Virus genome (UHGV): UHGV-0311442
Length of the DNA: 64,000 nt
Direction: 5' to 3' (one strand)
Source: a virus
A program made the position numbers and the translations under genes. This document shows, one piece after another, positions 53,511-61,654 of this stretch. The notes beneath the pieces are model-generated. The model saw nothing but the letters and a program-made list of their open reading frames with translations, did not search any database and was not told the origin of the DNA. The number at the start of each line of letters is the position of its first letter. Positions within the stretch are counted from its first letter, which is position 1.

Positions 53511-54248
53511 TTACGCGGTTTTAATTAACAGCAGATAGTCCTTCGTAATCTCAGCACAACCCCACCCTCTCATCGCGGCGATTTTACGAAGATCAATTTT
53601 CTCGTGATATCTCAATAAGGGATCGCCTGAGTTAATCTCAACCAGGTGTGTGGCTTTAGAAATCGTTTCTACATCAGGGATCTGTTTTGCTAAGTCGGAT
53701 GCAATTAACTCGATGATACGGTATCCCTCTAACACAGAAACATAGATGCGCAAACCATATAGCGTGCCTTCGTCTTCTAATGGACAAAGATCGATGCCGG
53801 GTCCAAGCAGTGATAACTCGACGTTATCGGGAAGGTTTTCTGCATTTCGGAGTAACCCTATCCCATTTCTAAACAGAGGGAAGTAAGAGAATAGTGGTGG
53901 TAAAGCCCAACCGTTCCCAATAAGCACATCAGCGATACTCGTAGGTGTGTTCGCAAGAAGACGAATGTGGTCAGCCACAACTTCAAGTTCGGCGTCACTG
54001 ATCAACTTATAGATTAACATGACACTGGTTTCGGTATTAATAACAAAGAAGACGCGGTTGGCGTAACTGCCTATCACGTATTCGTCAATCATACAGTCGA
54101 TAACGTCACTGTCTGGATAATCTTCAGGTTTAATTGTTCCAGCATCGATTAACTTAGCAGGTTGCGATTGTTTTATTAGTTCGTTAACCACCGTAGAAGA
54201 AAGTTCTAAACTGGTGTTGGTAAAGATATCGTCTAATAATTCTTTCAT
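53511..54248 (-). CDS. Paralog family member 4 (245 aa), degenerate module
   Basis: C-terminus AAMRGWGCAEITKDYLLLIKTA; N-terminus MKELLDDIF matches member 1. Confidence 0.5.
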   Translation of the reverse strand: MKELLDDIFTNTSLELSSTVVNELIKQSQPAKLIDAGTIKPEDYPDSDVIDCMIDEYVIGSYANRVFFVINTETSVMLIYKLISDAELEVVADHIRLLANTPTSIADVLIGNGWALPPLFSYFPLFRNGIGLLRNAENLPDNVELSLLGPGIDLCPLEDEGTLYGLRIYVSVLEGYRIIELIASDLAKQIPDVETISKATHLVEINSGDPLLRYHEKIDLRKIAAMRGWGCAEITKDYLLLIKTA

Positions 54249-54568: not shown

Positions 54569-55534
54569 ATGGAGAAATCCAGTGTTGATTTTTTCTCAAT
54601 TGGTATCGTCGCGGAAGACAAACCCCGTGGTACAGATCGGGTAAAAGTGATACCAATTGAAACTAACTTTGCTAACCCTACCGTGGTGCAATCTGTTTCT
54701 TCAGCAACTGAAAAGACGCATGAAACGTCTGGTGCAACAGATAACCTAACCATTAAGACGGGTAACACGATAACAGCAAAGTGGTGGAAGTTTAACTCCA
54801 ACCGAATTAATTCCCCTGACGTTAAACGAGAAGACTACGTTATCTTGTTACGTTTGGGGAAAACCGATATTTATTTTTGGATTGATCTGAACTTCGCTAA
54901 CGTTAAGCGATTAGAAGATGCGGTTTATGCGTGGTCGGCTGACCCTGAAAACCAAATGGCGGATGACTTGTCCAATGCGTATGTGTTGAACGTTTCGACG
55001 ATTGACAAACATATCACGCTAAGAACAAGTATGGTGAATGGCGAGAAAGCGGCGTGGTTGTTTCAGTTTGATAATGCAAACGGTACGTGGCAGTGCGTTG
55101 ACCATAAAGGAAACAAGTATTACATTAACTCGGTTGAAGATGATCTCGGGTTTGAGAATGCGATGCTTTCAAAAGTGAACATCAACAAAGAAGATGCGTT
55201 CATTTATTCAAAGCGTTCTATTAACCTGGAAACGAAAACGATTAATGAAAAATGCGAAGTTCGCAATACAGAAGCAGCGAAATCCGTTACGTTTAAAACA
55301 CAAACCTGGTTAACGGAAGCGGGAAGTTCGACAACGTTTAAAACGCCGAACTTTAAACAAGAAGGGAAGGAAGCGATGTTCACCGGTAATTTGGAAATCG
55401 CTAAGAACTTCAAATACGGTGGTACGGGTGAAGGTGTGGGTGTCTTTACGGTTAAAGATGCTGTTATTTCCGGTATTACCTTTAGCGTTCACATTCACCA
55501 AGGTAAACATGGTCCGACATCACCTCCGCAATAA
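54569..55534 (+). CDS. Hypothetical protein, probable tail-module component (321 aa)
   Basis: Plus-strand ORF with ATG start and AAGGAACG upstream, at the edge of the tail-fibre gene block. Product unknown. Confidence 0.5.
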   Translation: MEKSSVDFFSIGIVAEDKPRGTDRVKVIPIETNFANPTVVQSVSSATEKTHETSGATDNLTIKTGNTITAKWWKFNSNRINSPDVKREDYVILLRLGKTDIYFWIDLNFANVKRLEDAVYAWSADPENQMADDLSNAYVLNVSTIDKHITLRTSMVNGEKAAWLFQFDNANGTWQCVDHKGNKYYINSVEDDLGFENAMLSKVNINKEDAFIYSKRSINLETKTINEKCEVRNTEAAKSVTFKTQTWLTEAGSSTTFKTPNFKQEGKEAMFTGNLEIAKNFKYGGTGEGVGVFTVKDAVISGITFSVHIHQGKHGPTSPPQ

Positions 55535-55740
55535 TTCCCCTTTTTCTTACGTTGTTTTTATATATTGTGACCTGACGTTGGTAAAACTTTTTATCAACAC
55601 TTTTCTTAAACCCATCGTTTAGTTAAGCAGGCCACTTTTTTCGCGCACTCTACTCCTCCCTACGGGGAGGAGCTATCTTATGCTTCGGTTGTAACACACG
55701 TCGGTCTTAGACCACCTTCCTTTTGAAATGGAGAGCTGTT

Positions 55741-55950
55741 ATGTCTATTAAAGAGTTCTCTTCTGCTGAGCATATTCCAGAAGAGTTTAAGAAAATCGGT
55801 AACGTTAGCGCCTTCGGCGATACCGTTGATCATGTAACTGGTAAGCTGGCTGCTGAAGCCGAAAAAATTGGCGGCGACGCATTCAAAGTTATCGGTATTT
55901 CCGGCAACAACAAACTGCACGGTAACGCGATTGTCTACAAAAAAGACTAA
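55741..55950 (+). CDS. BhsA/YcfR-like (DUF1471 family) small protein lacking a signal peptide
   Basis: 69 aa, ATG at 55741 (track start 55723 is TTG). GGDAFKVIGISGNNKLHGNAIVYK closely resembles the BhsA C-terminus GAKSFRITSVTGPNTLHGTAVIYK; in-frame stop 30 nt upstream excludes a leader. Confidence 0.55.
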   Translation: MSIKEFSSAEHIPEEFKKIGNVSAFGDTVDHVTGKLAAEAEKIGGDAFKVIGISGNNKLHGNAIVYKKD

Positions 55951-55951
55951 G

Positions 55952-56010
55952 CGAAAAAAAAACGTGCTACTCCTACCCTCTAAGAGGGTAGGAGGTTACT
56001 TTATTTTTTT
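55952..56010. terminator. Bidirectional rho-independent terminator
   Basis: Stem CTCCTACCCTC/GAGGGTAGGAG, loop TAA, A-run upstream and T-run downstream. Confidence 0.75.
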
Positions 56011-57263
56011 CGTGCTCTAAAGCGATGCATTTCTAAATACACTTTTTCCCAGGGACCGAATGGACCAACGATTGCTTGAGCATCGTTAATCTTCTTCTGA
56101 TTATACCACCGGGCTTCACGAAAGACGTAGTTTTGACTGTCGAATTCGGTGGTGTTAAATACCCACTCACCTTCCTCCCACGTAGGCCAATAACCTACCG
56201 TCTTACCAAATCGATTATTTAAGTACCCTAATGGTTTTTCAGAATCAGGATCGTTAGGGTCCTTGAGATAACAACGTCCCCAAACTGCGTTATGGGATAC
56301 ACCCACAACCTCTTCTTCTAAATACGGATTATCTACCGTAAAGATAAAAGAGGATTCGTGGAGTAAAAGTGCCTTTAATGTTTCGGGGTTGCGAATACGT
56401 TGGACATTAGTAGGTGTTGATAAATCCCCCACACCGATGGCGTCCCAGTCGTAATAGCGACGGGTTTCCAGAACGGTCCGTGCAAGATCAAAATTCGGTA
56501 AAGAAATCATGATAGCACGGTCGGAGAAATAACCGCCCGGGGGCAACCAACGTAACATCCCGCCTATGACGAAACCCACGGTTTTTCCCGTAATAGATTC
56601 GGGCAGCGATATCATTAACGTAGAGTAATAGTCGCGTGTAGTGTCGAGCTTGTTTAGGGTAAGGTTGGCAATGGGGTAAGTTTTAACATTCCCTAACTGA
56701 CCAAAAACCATACAACCAATATCTGGCGTACAGGCTCTCCGTACGATTTTACCGGCCCCGGGTAATCGCACACCTACGGTATCCGTCTGGTGTGGTACCC
56801 ACTGACCGTTGATGTTGTAGAGCACACTATTACGGTATTTGTCCTTCCACTTGTCCTCACAAACGACGACAACGTCATCAGCATCGTCTAAGCTGAAATC
56901 TTGACTGTGATGGTACCCCGGCGGACACAGATATGTCTCGACAGGCACATCGGCATTAATTGATTGGTAGTGTGCCCAACTGAATTCCAGTTTCGGCAAT
57001 CCGGCCTTTAGAGTGGGGATGACGTTTCCGGCTTTTTCATTTAACCAATCTTGTAAAGTGTCTGTTCGGTTTTGTAGTTCGGCAAGATGGTATTGACTGA
57101 CTAACGTATAGTCTTTACCAAGTGCACTTAAACCGATCTCAAAGGTGTGGTAGTCTGAACACAACGTATTTAAGGGTTGCGTGACATCGATGGCTCCCCA
57201 GGTACGGGACTCTCGAGAGAAGCCAAAAGCGCTGTCGGGCCGCACTTGATAAGCAGTAGTCAC
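56001..57263 (-). CDS. Hypothetical protein, possible baseplate or tail component (420 aa)
   Basis: Long ORF divergent from the tail-fibre-like genes. Product unknown. Confidence 0.55.
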   Translation of the reverse strand: MTTAYQVRPDSAFGFSRESRTWGAIDVTQPLNTLCSDYHTFEIGLSALGKDYTLVSQYHLAELQNRTDTLQDWLNEKAGNVIPTLKAGLPKLEFSWAHYQSINADVPVETYLCPPGYHHSQDFSLDDADDVVVVCEDKWKDKYRNSVLYNINGQWVPHQTDTVGVRLPGAGKIVRRACTPDIGCMVFGQLGNVKTYPIANLTLNKLDTTRDYYSTLMISLPESITGKTVGFVIGGMLRWLPPGGYFSDRAIMISLPNFDLARTVLETRRYYDWDAIGVGDLSTPTNVQRIRNPETLKALLLHESSFIFTVDNPYLEEEVVGVSHNAVWGRCYLKDPNDPDSEKPLGYLNNRFGKTVGYWPTWEEGEWVFNTTEFDSQNYVFREARWYNQKKINDAQAIVGPFGPWEKVYLEMHRFRARKK

Positions 57264-57331
57264 AGCTCTTTTCCTCTATAGATTCAAGTCATAGTATGAA
57301 CTTCGACGCCCACGGACTATAGGAGTAGAGA

Positions 57332-60300
57332 ATGGCTGTCGTCCTAGACCCACACTTCAAAAAACCGGGGAATAAAATAACCGGTGAAGCGGTCGCCGTC
57401 TTTGGTACGAAATACCGAATGTTGGTACCTGCCCACGCCCCTTTTTTCACCACATCCCTGGTGGTCAAGAGCGGCGGCAAAACACTGACCATAGGCGACG
57501 ATTACGTTATTACGCACCCGTACGAGACCGGTATGTTGCGCACAGCCTATCTCATTCACGGGATGATTTGGATTGTTAATGACAAATACAAATCGAATTT
57601 TACGGTAGATTACCACGCCGTTGGTTGTGGTCAGGCTACCCAACAACAGATTACCGCAGAACGCGAACTCAATAAAGATAAATACCCGTCTGCGTGTCAG
57701 TGGGACACCGTCATCGGGGACGTTTACTTTCCACCGGTCGATATCCAGTTCGATTGGGAGAATTGGAAAGGTGAACTGGAATTAATGCAGGCTATTGCTG
57801 GATTAGGCGATTCGTTAGGGGAAGTCGTGAGTCGGCTTAACCCCATCGCACGCAATACCCTGGATTTAGAATACCGTGCTAATAGCAAGGTTATCACTTC
57901 CGAGCAGTATGCCGTATACGACAATAAAGGTGGCTTCACCTACAACACTGCCCGTCATCGTTATAGCTTGAGTTATAAAACTGCAACCTTTAACGACTAC
58001 GCCCTGTCAGTGAAACACAGAATTCCTGCTATTCTGCCAGACATGACGAAATTGAATCCAAACGAACAGATCGATTGGATGCTCTGTTATGCTAACGGCG
58101 GTGCAAGTATTCTACGGCTGCAGCTAAAACAGCGCAAAATCTCACTGGTCTTAACGGTCGCTATTGGTAGCGGTTCAACAAACTACGATTATACGTTAAT
58201 CAACGGCTTAACTGACGATGAGTTAAAAAACGATATCGATTTTAGTGTAACCCGACAACCCGGAAACGGTGTTTACGTCATCGTAGTAAAAACAAATAAA
58301 CAGACCATGGATTACACATTCAATGTCGATACGCCGCCTGATGAGTTCTCGGCAGGGTATTCGAAAACGGATGTTGCTAAATGGTTGAAGTTTAAAACGA
58401 ACATTAATTTAAACTGGTATGCGGCCGAAAACGATTATATTCAAATTCGTTCTTTACCCGGCGCACCAGAACCTGACATCGATAACGATGTTTACCAGTT
58501 AATAGTCAAATACCATCAGTTAGTTGAGCAGCTGTATCGTAACGCGCCTGCACACGAACACGTTACACGTAAGGACAACCCGCACACCGATACGTGGGGT
58601 CCGATCCGTGCGTTAGAGCTGAATGGTATTGCGACAGATGCCGCGTTAGCTTACGGGAAGACGAAACAGCAGTTAACGGATTATGTTAATGCTAAGTACC
58701 CAACACAAGCAACGTTAACCGCACAGAAAAAACTGCTTCGTGAATCGCCGAGCAAGAACGTTAACGGCACGATTACCACACTTCCGGGTTTTACTTCGTT
58801 CACGACGGAAGTTGATCCGGTCTCGATGTCGAAATACGTGAGTCCTTATTTTAGCGAAAGCTATGTTAGTAGTGGTCACAGATATCACGGCGCGCTTCGT
58901 TATACAGGAGCGAAAAGCGGTTTCAGTGCTAACTTTAATGCAGTGCCTGCCAACCTGCAAGATATTGACTTTATTGTTACTGGACGTAAAACAGCGTCTG
59001 GTAATGAAGCGGTCGGTAGGGTTGGTTTACGTTTCTACGAAAATCCTGGTAGTAACTCCGGTAAGTACGTAGAGATTACCGGTGAAGTCTGGTCCGGTAC
59101 TCTTACTATCGAACTGGCGTTGCACGGTTACGGTAGTCCGGTACCGGCAGTTCGGTATATTTCACAAGCTCCTAACCCGGCAATACCGGATGGGGATTTT
59201 ACGCTACGTTTTCAACTGAAGCGTACAGGGAATGTGTTTGACGTCGTTATTACCGTAAACAGTAAAACGTATAGCGGTAGGATTAACTTCAATAACATGG
59301 ACGCTGCGTTAGAAGCATTAGAGAATCAGCACCACTTTAAATCGCTGATCAATAATGTTGCCGACGCCGTTACCATTAGTTCGCAAAACAAAGGTAACAC
59401 GGTTACCATTAAGAAAGCACCGGATGTTGTTGACGAGACACGTTTAGGTGCCCAGTTTGTTGTTGATCCGAAATCCATCAAGTTTATTGGCCAAGGTTCA
59501 ACTGATGTTAACGTGGCTAACAACCCCGTAACGTTCCAAGCAGGTACTAACCAGCTTGTGCTATACCCCGATGACCGAGGATTGTTGTGGCGTGGTAAAA
59601 AACTCTTAGACCCCACCACCGTAGCCCCGTATCTGCCAGGCAATACCGCAGGTGGCACAGGTTTATTCTACGCAAGTTCGACAACAACGGTTACGATCAC
59701 CGGTAGCGGGATAAAAGCCTCGCCGTTCGTAGCGACCTTTATTCTTCCTACCGCGACCGATACAACAGCTCTGGCAGCTTGGCAGTTGACCGATGAGTTC
59801 GGTACCGCTGAAAACCTTGCAGCAACGCCAGCACTGATTGAAAAACTCGATGCGGAGTTCACCGGTAAGTTAGTTGCAGTTAAATCGTACATTAACGACA
59901 TGCAACTTACCAGCTCGGTTACTATCGATAAGATTACCTTTGGTTTAGGTAACGTTGCGAATACGCCTGATGTCGATTTACCGATTTCTACAGCACAACG
60001 TGCGGAGTTAGATAAATACTCGCCTAAAGTTCACCAACACCCGTTTACCGCTTTTGGTACAGGGAACGCAACCACAGCGCAACGTGGTCTGATTAAATTT
60101 GGTCTGGATGTGGATGATGCGACTTTAGCACTCGATGGGAGTGTGGTAATGGCGCAGACTTCCCAGATTGAAAAATTGGAGCGCGCTGTCAGCGGTGTTG
60201 ACTCGGAGGCACGTCTTGACATTATACGTTTTGGTGAGTCTGGTAACGACTTAATAGACGTTACGGTCAAAGACAAAATTCTGGTCACGCTTCCAGCTTC

Positions 60301-61654
60301 AACGTATTTTATCGGTGGTGAAACATACGACGTTCCGTTGATGACGATTAACGTCAGTGAACGTTTTCCGAAATTGAATACAGAAATCTACGCAGGGATT
60401 TTTGTTGATATTGTTGACAACAAAGCGAAGTATATTGTCCACGACAGCTACAGTCAGGCTGAAACGGATACCATGACGCGTGTAGGGTTGATTGGTGTTA
60501 ACGACATTTCTGAGGTGTTCGTTACGGAGATGCGTAATGTCACACGGTTGGGCGATTTCCGTGAACTGAAAGATCATAAAGCCGATGACAACGCACACAT
60601 TCAACGCTCCGCGTCACGTGCAGCGCTTGGGTTAGCTAACTTAACCGTAGGTGCGCCTTGCTGGGCTTCTGGACTCCAGGCAGTAGTACGCGGTGAAGCA
60701 GATTGGCGTTATGTTGTCGATGGGCAGTATAAAGCCTTAGACGGGGTGAAATACGACCAGCTCGCATCCAAGTGGATTTTTGACGCGAAAGGGGTAAGCG
60801 ATAACCTGCACGGGTTTATCCACAGCATGTTCCCAGCTTTTAAGAACGCAGGAATGCGGGTAAGTTGGGAAACAGAAAGTAACGCAAAAACCGGTACGGT
60901 GCTAGAAACTGTTTTAGGATGCTGGAAAAACACCGACGGCGAGTTTATGCGGTTGTCGTTACTTATCACTCGTGGTTATCGTTTAACTGACAGCAACGGT
61001 GAATATTGTTACGCAGGGTTCGGTTTGAACTTCGGTAGCGGGAAATCGGTAGTGTTAGGTTTCACACCAACGAAGCGTGTTACGCCTGCACCGTGGAATA
61101 CGTTACAACCTGACGTAACGTTTACCCACACCCGTGCTGCAAATAACGCAATAACGTTTAACGCAACATTGACCTTAGCGGGCACTACGTATACCATCGT
61201 GGTGTTTTTATCTGCGACTGATAAATACGTAAGTTGCACGGCAGCAGGGGGAGCTACGCAGAAAATCCCTCTAACTGACCGTTTAACTGGGTTCAATATC
61301 GCACCTATCGTTAACGATCCGTATACCCCTATTTACTACGGTTTAGGGGGACTTTATGAGGATGAAGTTCGTGCCAACATCCGTTCTACGGCAGATAGCG
61401 CAACCGCGAATAAAGTCTATGGTACGTTGTTAGACTATATTAGCAACTATTCCTCATTAAATCGTGTGCGCGTTATGGAATTGACCGGTGTCAGTTCAGA
61501 CCCCGAAACGCTTAATGCGTTAGTGGCAACTGAATTTAATAACAACCTGGCGGATTACGCTGCGTTACCGATACCTCCTTATCTTAACAAGGAGCGCGTA
61601 ATGTCGTTTATCGACACCAACAATAAAGTGCAGGCGGTAATCATTCGCGATTAA
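57332..61654 (+). CDS. Large tail-fibre-like structural protein (1440 aa)
   Basis: ATG with AGGAG upstream; PDVDLPISTAQRAELDKYSPKVHQHPF resembles the conserved phage tail-fibre motif (DKP.ST...H.H). Confidence 0.6.
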   Translation: MAVVLDPHFKKPGNKITGEAVAVFGTKYRMLVPAHAPFFTTSLVVKSGGKTLTIGDDYVITHPYETGMLRTAYLIHGMIWIVNDKYKSNFTVDYHAVGCGQATQQQITAERELNKDKYPSACQWDTVIGDVYFPPVDIQFDWENWKGELELMQAIAGLGDSLGEVVSRLNPIARNTLDLEYRANSKVITSEQYAVYDNKGGFTYNTARHRYSLSYKTATFNDYALSVKHRIPAILPDMTKLNPNEQIDWMLCYANGGASILRLQLKQRKISLVLTVAIGSGSTNYDYTLINGLTDDELKNDIDFSVTRQPGNGVYVIVVKTNKQTMDYTFNVDTPPDEFSAGYSKTDVAKWLKFKTNINLNWYAAENDYIQIRSLPGAPEPDIDNDVYQLIVKYHQLVEQLYRNAPAHEHVTRKDNPHTDTWGPIRALELNGIATDAALAYGKTKQQLTDYVNAKYPTQATLTAQKKLLRESPSKNVNGTITTLPGFTSFTTEVDPVSMSKYVSPYFSESYVSSGHRYHGALRYTGAKSGFSANFNAVPANLQDIDFIVTGRKTASGNEAVGRVGLRFYENPGSNSGKYVEITGEVWSGTLTIELALHGYGSPVPAVRYISQAPNPAIPDGDFTLRFQLKRTGNVFDVVITVNSKTYSGRINFNNMDAALEALENQHHFKSLINNVADAVTISSQNKGNTVTIKKAPDVVDETRLGAQFVVDPKSIKFIGQGSTDVNVANNPVTFQAGTNQLVLYPDDRGLLWRGKKLLDPTTVAPYLPGNTAGGTGLFYASSTTTVTITGSGIKASPFVATFILPTATDTTALAAWQLTDEFGTAENLAATPALIEKLDAEFTGKLVAVKSYINDMQLTSSVTIDKITFGLGNVANTPDVDLPISTAQRAELDKYSPKVHQHPFTAFGTGNATTAQRGLIKFGLDVDDATLALDGSVVMAQTSQIEKLERAVSGVDSEARLDIIRFGESGNDLIDVTVKDKILVTLPASTYFIGGETYDVPLMTINVSERFPKLNTEIYAGIFVDIVDNKAKYIVHDSYSQAETDTMTRVGLIGVNDISEVFVTEMRNVTRLGDFRELKDHKADDNAHIQRSASRAALGLANLTVGAPCWASGLQAVVRGEADWRYVVDGQYKALDGVKYDQLASKWIFDAKGVSDNLHGFIHSMFPAFKNAGMRVSWETESNAKTGTVLETVLGCWKNTDGEFMRLSLLITRGYRLTDSNGEYCYAGFGLNFGSGKSVVLGFTPTKRVTPAPWNTLQPDVTFTHTRAANNAITFNATLTLAGTTYTIVVFLSATDKYVSCTAAGGATQKIPLTDRLTGFNIAPIVNDPYTPIYYGLGGLYEDEVRANIRSTADSATANKVYGTLLDYISNYSSLNRVRVMELTGVSSDPETLNALVATEFNNNLADYAALPIPPYLNKERVMSFIDTNNKVQAVIIRD

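Follow-up and report, generated by a model that had tools for sequence, protein, structure and literature searches.

The window, i.e. the whole stretch of 64,000 nucleotides of virus DNA analyzed here (UHGV-0311442), carries at positions 55741-55950 of the plus strand (stop codon included) a real gene whose product is a leaderless, single-domain DUF1471 protein of 69 amino acids, the orthologue of gp172 of phage SPN3US, and which stems from an ancient capture; we hold this core claim to be practically certain. The assignment is based on the open reading frame and on matches to the Pfam family PF07338 and to the phage protein group PHROG 8068.

Direct reading and translation of the sequence placed the open reading frame on the plus strand, from the ATG at 55741 to the TAA at 55948-55950, and its product, MSIKEFSSAEHIPEEFKKIGNVSAFGDTVDHVTGKLAAEAEKIGGDAFKVIGISGNNKLHGNAIVYKKD, includes the motif FKVIGISGNNKLHGNAIVYK to which an earlier note on this DNA had called attention; the coordinates, the length and the motif given there were exactly confirmed. 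A Shine-Dalgarno sequence, GGAGAG (55730-55735, plus strand), lies 5 nt before the ATG, and GGAG or GAGG was found at the equivalent place in all of the 13 loci compared. Upstream, the frame is closed by an in-frame TAG (55708-55710, plus strand) located 10 codons ahead of the ATG, and the sole start codon between them, a TTG at 55723, would add six residues (LKWRAV). Because of this TAG and of the six extra residues at most, a signal peptide cannot be encoded at the gene, and the previous argument that an in-frame stop excludes a leader holds. When the 13 loci were scanned upstream to the previous stop, the in-frame stretch varied in length and sequence, neither a conserved frame nor a start codon with a hydrophobic stretch behind it was detected, and the upstream in-frame start with a signal peptide that would have spoken for an exported protein was seen in none of them. 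An antisense open reading frame of 80 aa (55678-55920, minus strand) was rejected, since the profile matches and the selection signal are all found in the plus frame.

The 69-aa product matched PF07338 (YdgH/BhsA/McbA-like, formerly DUF1471) with an E-value of 1.4e-9 and 38.2 bits over positions 2-55 of the 55 in the profile, the gathering threshold of the family being 27 bits. The best match by sequence in the PDB was Salmonella YahO (2MA4/2NOC), with an E-value of 1.5e-3. An AlphaFold2 model built from eight phage-type sequences (mean pLDDT 89.4, pTM 0.74) predicted a short strand (residues 4-6), a long strand (16-26), a helix (29-42) and two further strands (47-54 and 59-68), and a Foldseek search with this predicted model retrieved YdgH (4EVU, TM 0.75; 2M2J, TM 0.78), SrfN (2MA8, TM 0.74) and YahO (2NOC, TM 0.73), so that the modelled protein has the compact α+β fold of DUF1471. 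In a column-by-column comparison, the residues G20, V22, G26, T28, L36, A40, G44, G55, N57, G61, A63, Y66 and K67 of the window protein turned out to be conserved in 15 phage sequences and to be the majority residue in 72 bacterial sequences, and the C-terminal family motif G-x-N...G-x-A-x-x-Y-K/R is also present. Therefore, the membership in DUF1471 that had been proposed from the letters is upheld by a Pfam score above threshold, the predicted fold and the signature residues, which all agree, and the similarity to the family, once checked, proved significant.

The more specific designation 'BhsA/YcfR-like' did not stand. The NCBIfam equivalog model for BhsA (NF047859) was the best NCBIfam match of the window protein and was still under its cut-off, with 46.8 bits (E-value of 3.4e-12) over profile positions 30-85 of 85 only, versus a cut-off of 90 bits and 136.6 bits for a true BhsA-like control (P0056). 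The equivalog model for YahO (NF007400) gave 24.9 bits versus a cut-off of 90, despite YahO being the best PDB match, and those for YbiJ and McbA gave 33.8 and 22.9 bits, respectively, both versus a cut-off of 110. With 46.8 bits against an equivalog cut-off of 90, the 'BhsA' label overstates the match, and on these profile scores the window protein is a generic DUF1471 domain rather than an equivalog of BhsA, YahO, YbiJ or McbA. The domain, the predicted fold and the conserved residues are common to the window protein and BhsA/YcfR, YbiJ, YahO, McbA, YhcN and SrfN, and the C-terminal motif G-N-N-x-x-H-G-x-A-x-x-Y-K is shared with enterobacterial DUF1471 proteins; in contrast, the window protein lacks their Sec leader and lies below every NCBIfam equivalog cut-off. 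The genetic settings differ as well, the host genes being expressed from a stress-responsive host promoter whereas the window gene resides in a virulent jumbo phage and probably depends on a phage-RNAP promoter.

The predicted model also resembles RcsF (2Y1B), the outer-membrane lipoprotein that acts as sensor of the Rcs envelope-stress system, with a query-normalised TM of 0.85 and an rmsd of 1.9 Å. Nevertheless, the window protein shows about 12% identity to RcsF, has no lipobox and, lacking any cysteine, does not possess the disulfide-forming cysteines of RcsF; as far as the model indicates, the likeness is one of fold only and not of membership. A resemblance in fold between DUF1471 and RcsF had already been published (PMC4092069).

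An N-terminal Sec leader and a periplasmic location are typical of 'most' DUF1471 members (PMC4092069), i.e. the leader is typical of these proteins and not defining for the domain. HMMER, run exhaustively against 1.84 billion representatives, yielded 91 matches that included bacterial homologues; a word-indexed protein search had reached 7 close relatives only, and the exhaustive search was needed for the bacterial homologues. The top four HMMER matches have 68-78 aa and were aligned from residue 1, whereas in the other 87, mostly of 80-90 aa, the alignment starts at about residue 20-35. At their start, the bacterial matches show a Sec-type leader (MK..., then a hydrophobic core and A-x-A), and, over residues 1-30, the maximum of the 10-residue Kyte-Doolittle mean amounts to about 2-3 in the full-length bacterial proteins and 1.3 or less in the phage-type ones. 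A few short bacterial entries resemble fragments or miscalled starts. The N-terminus of the window protein, MSIKEFSSAEHIPEEF, is hydrophilic, and no Sec signal peptide for periplasmic targeting was recognized in it. Because there is no leader and the alignment starts at residue 1 rather than at about residue 20-35, the phage protein is equivalent to what remains of the bacterial proteins after cleavage, i.e. their mature part. In agreement with the view of the earlier note that the gene encodes a leaderless counterpart of exported host proteins, the leader is missing in the window and in 12 related loci. In the case of YdgH, removal of the signal sequence abolishes function and the periplasmic location is needed, and leaderless YdgH could be purified as a soluble monomer, which indicates that DUF1471 folds without export (PMC11705850).

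As judged by its sequence, the window derives from a jumbo phage of the SPN3US/phiEaH2 group, with a nucleotide identity of only about 73-75% to any record of the phage collection; a metagenomic contig (L004) is nearly identical to it and shows one amino acid difference in the 69-aa protein. A tblastn search located the gene in 60 phage records whose hosts are Salmonella, Erwinia, Escherichia, Cronobacter or Proteus, and a more divergent allele below the tblastn threshold was present in phage Caitlin, which makes at least 61 phage records in total. The genera with the gene are five, i.e. Seoulvirus, Erskinevirus, Machinavirus, Wellingtonvirus and Derbicusvirus. In all of these records the orthologues encode leaderless proteins of 66-73 aa and are placed at the junction of baseplate and tail genes, and two metagenomic contigs show the same junction; synteny was checked in SPN3US, SPAsTU, Asesino, Huxley, Wellington, Phobos, CR5, Derbicus, pEa_SNUABM_29, pEa_SNUABM_4 and Caitlin. 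The window protein matched PHROG 8068 with an E-value of 4.5e-32, residues 1-69 covering profile positions 1-70 of 70, and both this full-length profile match and the position of the gene assign it to the gp172 group. The family is already catalogued (PHROG 8068 and several GenBank records) and is, therefore, not new, the window copy being a new member whose nearest copy in the searched phage records is 79.7% identical. Two allele types that are 45% identical cross the boundaries between genera, and the type KKIGNVS...AIVYK is common to the window protein, SPAsTU, Asesino and Huxley (71-80% identity). The GenBank labels vary among hypothetical, 'DUF1471 domain-containing protein' and 'multiple stress resistance protein BhsA', and some genome records, such as those of STsAS and JN03, leave the gene unannotated.

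Upstream of the DUF1471 gene, positions 54569-55534 (plus strand) encode a baseplate assembly protein of 321 aa that is the orthologue of SPN3US gp173 according to PHROG 3216 (E-value of 9e-114) and synteny; this baseplate annotation is syntenic in SPN3US, Asesino and others. Downstream, the convergent gene at 56001-57263 (minus strand) encodes a virion protein of 420 aa, orthologous to SPN3US gp171 and homologous to phiKZ ORF130 (PHROG 3337, E-value of 6e-145), with 76.7% identity to gp171 in tblastn, and beyond it lies the coding region of a gp168-170-type virion protein of 1440 aa (57332-61654). SPN3US gp171 is an essential tail/baseplate protein, and both gp171 and gp173 were found in tailed and not in tailless particles (PMC5105663). 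A baseplate gene upstream and a convergent gp171 orthologue downstream bear out the tail-gene neighbourhood that had been described for this locus. The arrangement is that of SPN3US itself, where gp172 (SPN3US_0172 / YP_009153466) is also a leaderless protein of 69 aa encoded between gp173 and gp171, with the same layout of flanking terminator and promoter, although the window protein shows 44.8% identity to gp172 and belongs to the other allele type.

The gene is preceded by a 206-nt spacer whose architecture was found to be conserved in an alignment of nine phages. A structured segment (55566-55644, plus strand), present in the nine phages, ends with CCAC-TTTTTT (55632-55641); the stretch GCCACTTTTTTCGC is near-invariant in these phages, and the hairpins that precede it differ in sequence. 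The window copy of this segment folds at -17.6 kcal/mol (z = -3.25), and single-sequence folds across the phages place hairpins ahead of the T-run, their z-scores lying between -1.2 and -3.3. RNAalifold applied to the gapped alignment of the upstream segment returned no consensus pairs, and Rfam and tRNA scans of 55300-56200 produced sub-threshold chance matches only, with no tRNA. In all likelihood, the upstream baseplate gene has its intrinsic terminator in this segment, which we do not regard as a demonstrated small RNA. A terminator scan revealed, next to it, a GC-rich hairpin (55653-55672, plus strand), CTCCTCCC-TACG-GGGAGGAG, that might act as a terminator-like insulator; most related phages have at the equivalent place a hairpin of other sequence followed by a T-run. 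In the window phage, this hairpin overlaps a promoter-like motif.

The motif in question (55661-55682, plus strand) is a putative phage-RNAP promoter, TAC-N14-TTATG, recognized by its conservation: within (T)TTAC-N14-TTATGC, the TAC and TATGC elements are invariant across the nine-phage alignment and the flanks are variable. The late promoters of phiKZ contain TATG, with the G as start site, and its middle promoters contain a TTAC motif near -24 (PMC4666361). By analogy, we infer that a phage-RNAP promoter may belong to the gene itself, so that transcription would begin near 55682 (G55682) and the 5'UTR would measure 59 nt. Throughout the window, the motif was observed 6 times versus 2.8 expected, several of the occurrences being inside open reading frames, and this enrichment is not significant; a literature search retrieved no map of transcription starts for SPN3US-like phages. 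On the downstream side, the terminator scan identified a bidirectional intrinsic terminator (55954-56010) formed by an A9 run (55954-55962), an 11-bp hairpin (55970-55994) and a T-rich run (56000-56010), which is shared with the convergent tail gene, whose minus-strand end is at 56001.

DUF1471 has been reported from Enterobacteriaceae/Enterobacterales only (PMC4092069, PMC11705850), and the hosts of all 60 phage records with the gene belong to the Enterobacterales as well. At the corresponding junction of E. coli phage Goslar, the flanking convergent genes are 51 nt apart and only an annotated terminator, with no gene, lies between them, and that of Vibrio phage pVa-21 is a 318-nt gap with no DUF1471 open reading frame. 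The taxonomic restriction of the domain, the Enterobacterales hosts of the phages and the lack of the gene in these outgroups argue for a capture from the host, which is well supported by inference and gives substance to the 'captured host domain' of the earlier note. The simplest history is one insertion at the convergent junction in an ancestor of the five-genus group. This single capture rests on synteny and on the outgroups, because a tree of 56 aligned positions is uninformative at such a length: in a neighbour-joining analysis, the monophyly of the phage sequences was recovered in 0 of 100 bootstraps when Wellington gp189 was included, and once gp189 was left out 11 of the 15 phage sequences formed one pure clade, with the Derbicusvirus group placed nearby among 7 bacterial sequences. 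Among the nearest cellular relatives are proteins of Pantoea, Erwiniaceae and Enterobacter, with about 40-47% identity over the domain. Since the GC content over the gene is equal to that of its surroundings, with no anomaly, there is no sign of a recent transfer, which is consistent with an old event.

Pairwise Nei-Gojobori comparisons of the orthologues gave dN/dS values of 0.06-0.28, with synonymous sites near saturation, and the 69-aa protein is under purifying selection. The gene recalls a moron in being a small gene of host origin between structural genes, with terminators on both sides and a candidate promoter, and in being absent from this junction in more distant relatives. Classical morons belong to temperate phages, in whose prophages the host RNA polymerase transcribes them. 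In contrast, the clade of the window gene is virulent and encodes RNA polymerases of its own, and the gene is fixed in five genera instead of occurring sporadically.

The earlier note had suggested a cytoplasmic or virion-associated use for the protein, and the most direct data on this point come from SPN3US. Its gp172 was detected in CsCl-purified wild-type virions by 4 peptides and 6 spectra with 81% coverage, and it is listed among the 86 virion proteins of the phage as the smallest one, of low abundance (PMC5694885). In the same work, gp172 was not found in 47(am1) particles, which the authors considered as maybe technical, stating that its status needs more work (PMC5694885); if the loss in this mutant of the head protein gp47 were real, it would point to the head and not to the tail. 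An earlier study, from 2016, did not find gp172 in any of four SPN3US particle preparations (PMC5105663, Table S4). Because of its absence from those four preparations and from 47(am1), virion membership is tentative, plausible rather than secure, and we would put it slightly above an even chance; the virion-associated use is thus favoured by the peptides from purified virions and left in doubt by the particles in which gp172 was missing.

The same data bear on the main alternative, according to which the protein is non-structural and remains in the cytoplasm, e.g. through binding to, or titration of, a host factor or an envelope-component precursor, so that its detection in virions would be due to carry-over, the protein being small, soluble and expressed late. 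The inconsistent detection of gp172 between preparations agrees with such a role, as do the presence of non-virion proteins at trace level, e.g. thymidylate synthase, in the very study that detected gp172 (PMC5694885) and the organization of the gene as a separate transcription unit that is not part of a structural operon. Nevertheless, carry-over does not readily explain four peptides covering 81% of the protein in CsCl-purified wild-type virions, and the list of proteins that the doubly purified vRNAP mutants lacked does not include gp172 (PMC5694885, Table 2). Moreover, the gene is set between two tail genes throughout the clade, and no cytoplasmic partner is known for any DUF1471 protein (PMC11705850). 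We consider a purely cytoplasmic role unlikely, albeit the most serious of the alternatives.

The explanation that we favour is that of a minor virion protein. The ancestor of the SPN3US-like jumbo phages of enterobacteria would have acquired, in a single event at the gp173/gp171 convergent junction, a DUF1471 cassette equipped with a promoter, a ribosome-binding site and a terminator of its own; since then, purifying selection has maintained the gene. The leaderless protein would stay in the cytoplasm, where tail and baseplate are assembled, and its most likely fate there would be incorporation at low copy number into the virion. Since the particle is assembled in the cytoplasm, a Sec-exported protein could have no part in it, and the loss of the leader would be a precondition for a virion role. 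The particle, and not Sec, would then bring the protein to the envelope of the next host, the usual site of action of DUF1471 domains, where it may bind an envelope component. This last step is an extrapolation from SrfN, which binds oxyanions and sulfated polysaccharides (PMC4092069), and, on such an analogy, an action on the envelope after delivery is a doubtful proposition when taken on its own. The chain as a whole, from captured leaderless domain to minor virion protein and envelope action, has in our judgement about equal chances of being right or wrong.

A more elaborate version would make the protein a virion-delivered effector, i.e. a cargo of the baseplate or tail tip that is set free in the next host's periplasm upon penetration by the tail, bypassing Sec, and that would mimic or disturb host DUF1471 or RcsF-like envelope-stress proteins and so favour the ejection of DNA and protein. 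This version, taken as a whole, we consider improbable. A blunted envelope-stress or abortive response and locally altered outer-membrane properties are examples of what such an effector might cause. If this version were true, a DUF1471 domain would for the first time have a molecular function, and periplasmic effectors injected by phages would gain a new class.

An action outside the cell was also considered, with the protein leaving the cell when it lyses or through a non-classical route and acting on nearby cells, debris or the matrix of a biofilm; it could mask envelope structures or alter surface properties, as overexpressed host BhsA is reported to do. Host DUF1471 proteins are tied to surface hydrophobicity, biofilm and envelope permeability (PMC11705850, PMC4092069), the binding of SrfN to sulfated polysaccharides (PMC4092069) would fit with this location, and two allele types that cross genus boundaries are typical of host-interaction genes. 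However, what one burst sets free of a 7-kDa protein would undergo heavy dilution, and the strictly conserved place among tail genes would be left without an explanation, so that such a role has little to recommend it, being slightly less credible than the injected effector.

A role as an auxiliary stress-resistance gene of the BhsA/YcfR type, acting in the periplasm of the infected cell, is what the GenBank labels of several records imply, and BhsA is indeed the best NCBIfam match (E-value of 3.4e-12). Nevertheless, this match is restricted to profile positions 30-85 and reaches about half of the 90-bit cut-off, a signal peptide exists in no orthologue, and YdgH deprived of its signal sequence is non-functional (PMC11705850), all of which makes a periplasmic stress function very improbable. 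Finally, a decaying remnant or a chance open reading frame with no function, which the very short length of the gene and its omission from the STsAS and JN03 records might suggest, was rejected as scarcely credible in view of the selection and proteomic data, i.e. dN/dS values of at most 0.28 at near-saturated synonymous sites and peptides over 81% of the orthologue gp172, and also of an intact frame with a Shine-Dalgarno sequence across five genera and of the retention of all signature residues.

Few small envelope proteins of Enterobacterales are induced by stress as strongly as the DUF1471 proteins, and we know of no molecular function for any single-domain member of this family. Our literature search found no paper joining DUF1471 with jumbo phages, and the single match for 'multiple stress resistance protein' together with phage and Erwinia was a host gene. 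As to annotation, the phage genes now called 'multiple stress resistance protein BhsA' should be renamed 'leaderless DUF1471 domain protein', and they should not be counted as stress-resistance or auxiliary metabolic genes, e.g. when the safety of a phage for therapy is judged. A leaderless copy kept in five genera beside baseplate genes is a natural experiment which indicates that the domain is useful without Sec export; since it has been kept under purifying selection in this state, the domain must work in the virion or in the cytoplasm. A partner found in SPN3US, for which a genetic system based on amber mutants exists, could thus give a handle on the whole DUF1471 family.

The spacer separating the baseplate gene from the DUF1471 gene (window 55535-55740) has a layout that is conserved across the related loci, as seen by comparison with SPN3US (L001 3794-4000), Huxley (L007 1249-1500), Wellington (L008 1098-1500) and four further loci (L002 3760-4000, L006 1268-1500, L012 1245-1500 and L013 1229-1500). 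In the window and in these loci, a TTTAC-N~15-T(A/G)TGAC motif stands immediately 3' of the baseplate stop codon and is followed by a structured stretch of 65-80 nt, which ends at its 3' side in the near-invariant GCCACTTTTTTCGC and has no match in Rfam. Because the first motif shares the form TTTAC-spacer-T(A/G)TG with the DUF1471 gene's putative promoter, the structured stretch could be a short independent transcript, i.e. a small RNA or a leader, rather than merely the terminator of the baseplate gene.

The 5'UTR of the DUF1471 gene was also compared with that of a nearly identical metagenomic contig (ENA ERZ28577814, L004 4620-4803 versus window 55535-55740). The contig lacks 21 nt (window ~55696-55716, CACACGTCGGTCTTAGACCAC), a deletion that takes out a small GGTC-TTA-GACC hairpin, and its conserved CCAC-T-run contains T5 versus T6 in the window. 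Given its absence from the contig, this hairpin is either dispensable or variable within the population. At the other end of the gene, a bidirectional intrinsic terminator of the textbook type, in which an 11-bp GC-rich hairpin is flanked by A9 and a T-rich run (window 55954-56010), is common to the DUF1471 gene (+) and the convergent gene of the 420-aa tail protein (-), whose stop codon (56001-56003) lies inside the T-rich run.

Farther downstream, the gp171-like gene (-) and the gene of a 1440-aa virion protein (+) are separated by a divergent spacer of 68 nt (window 57264-57331), which carries one TATG per strand (AGTATGAAC on + and ACTATGACT on -), each roughly 30 nt from the respective start codon. 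This pair fits the phiKZ-type TATG(+1) late promoters, and the two motifs are candidates for such promoters, although the motif alone is too short for significance. Upstream of the baseplate gene and divergent from it, a 245-aa ORF (window 53511-54248, -) has no PHROG match and only sub-threshold Pfam matches (RuvC, E=0.16). SPN3US, SPAsTU and Asesino contain at this position a 105-aa gene of the gp174 type instead; this part of the locus is unlike theirs.

The phage DUF1471 gene is annotated inconsistently across GenBank records (among them MH221129, SPAsTU; KX397373, Stratton; KX397369/NC_031010, Kwan; MH426724/NC_048016, Wellington; MH221128, STsAS; MT799840, JN03). Most records label it 'hypothetical protein', it is unannotated in STsAS and JN03, and some records name it 'multiple stress resistance protein BhsA', a label given to a gene that scores far under the BhsA equivalog cut-off and lacks a leader.

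Erwinia phage Wellington harbors a second leaderless DUF1471 gene directly 3' of the first (gp189, L008 1787-2347). Its product is 186 aa long, with a DUF1471 domain at the N terminus (Pfam, 29.7 bits; TM 0.87 in Foldseek against the predicted model of the window protein) and, after it, a long tail that is acidic and of low complexity. The gene is a lineage-specific duplication.

Comparison of the alleles of Caitlin (gp182, L014 3299-3508), SPN3US (gp172, L001 4001-4210) and Huxley (gp183, L007 1501-1710) revealed two allele types of the phage gene whose distribution crosses genus lines. The gene of Caitlin (Machinavirus) is 78% identical to that of SPN3US (Seoulvirus) and only 45% identical to that of Huxley (Machinavirus), and the window/Asesino type is present in SPAsTU (Seoulvirus). 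No such split is seen in the adjacent gp171-like gene, whose identity to the window copy is 62.3% in Caitlin and 62.0% in Huxley. A genus-crossing split that is confined to one of two neighboring genes suggests that the DUF1471 cassette has been exchanged by recombination.
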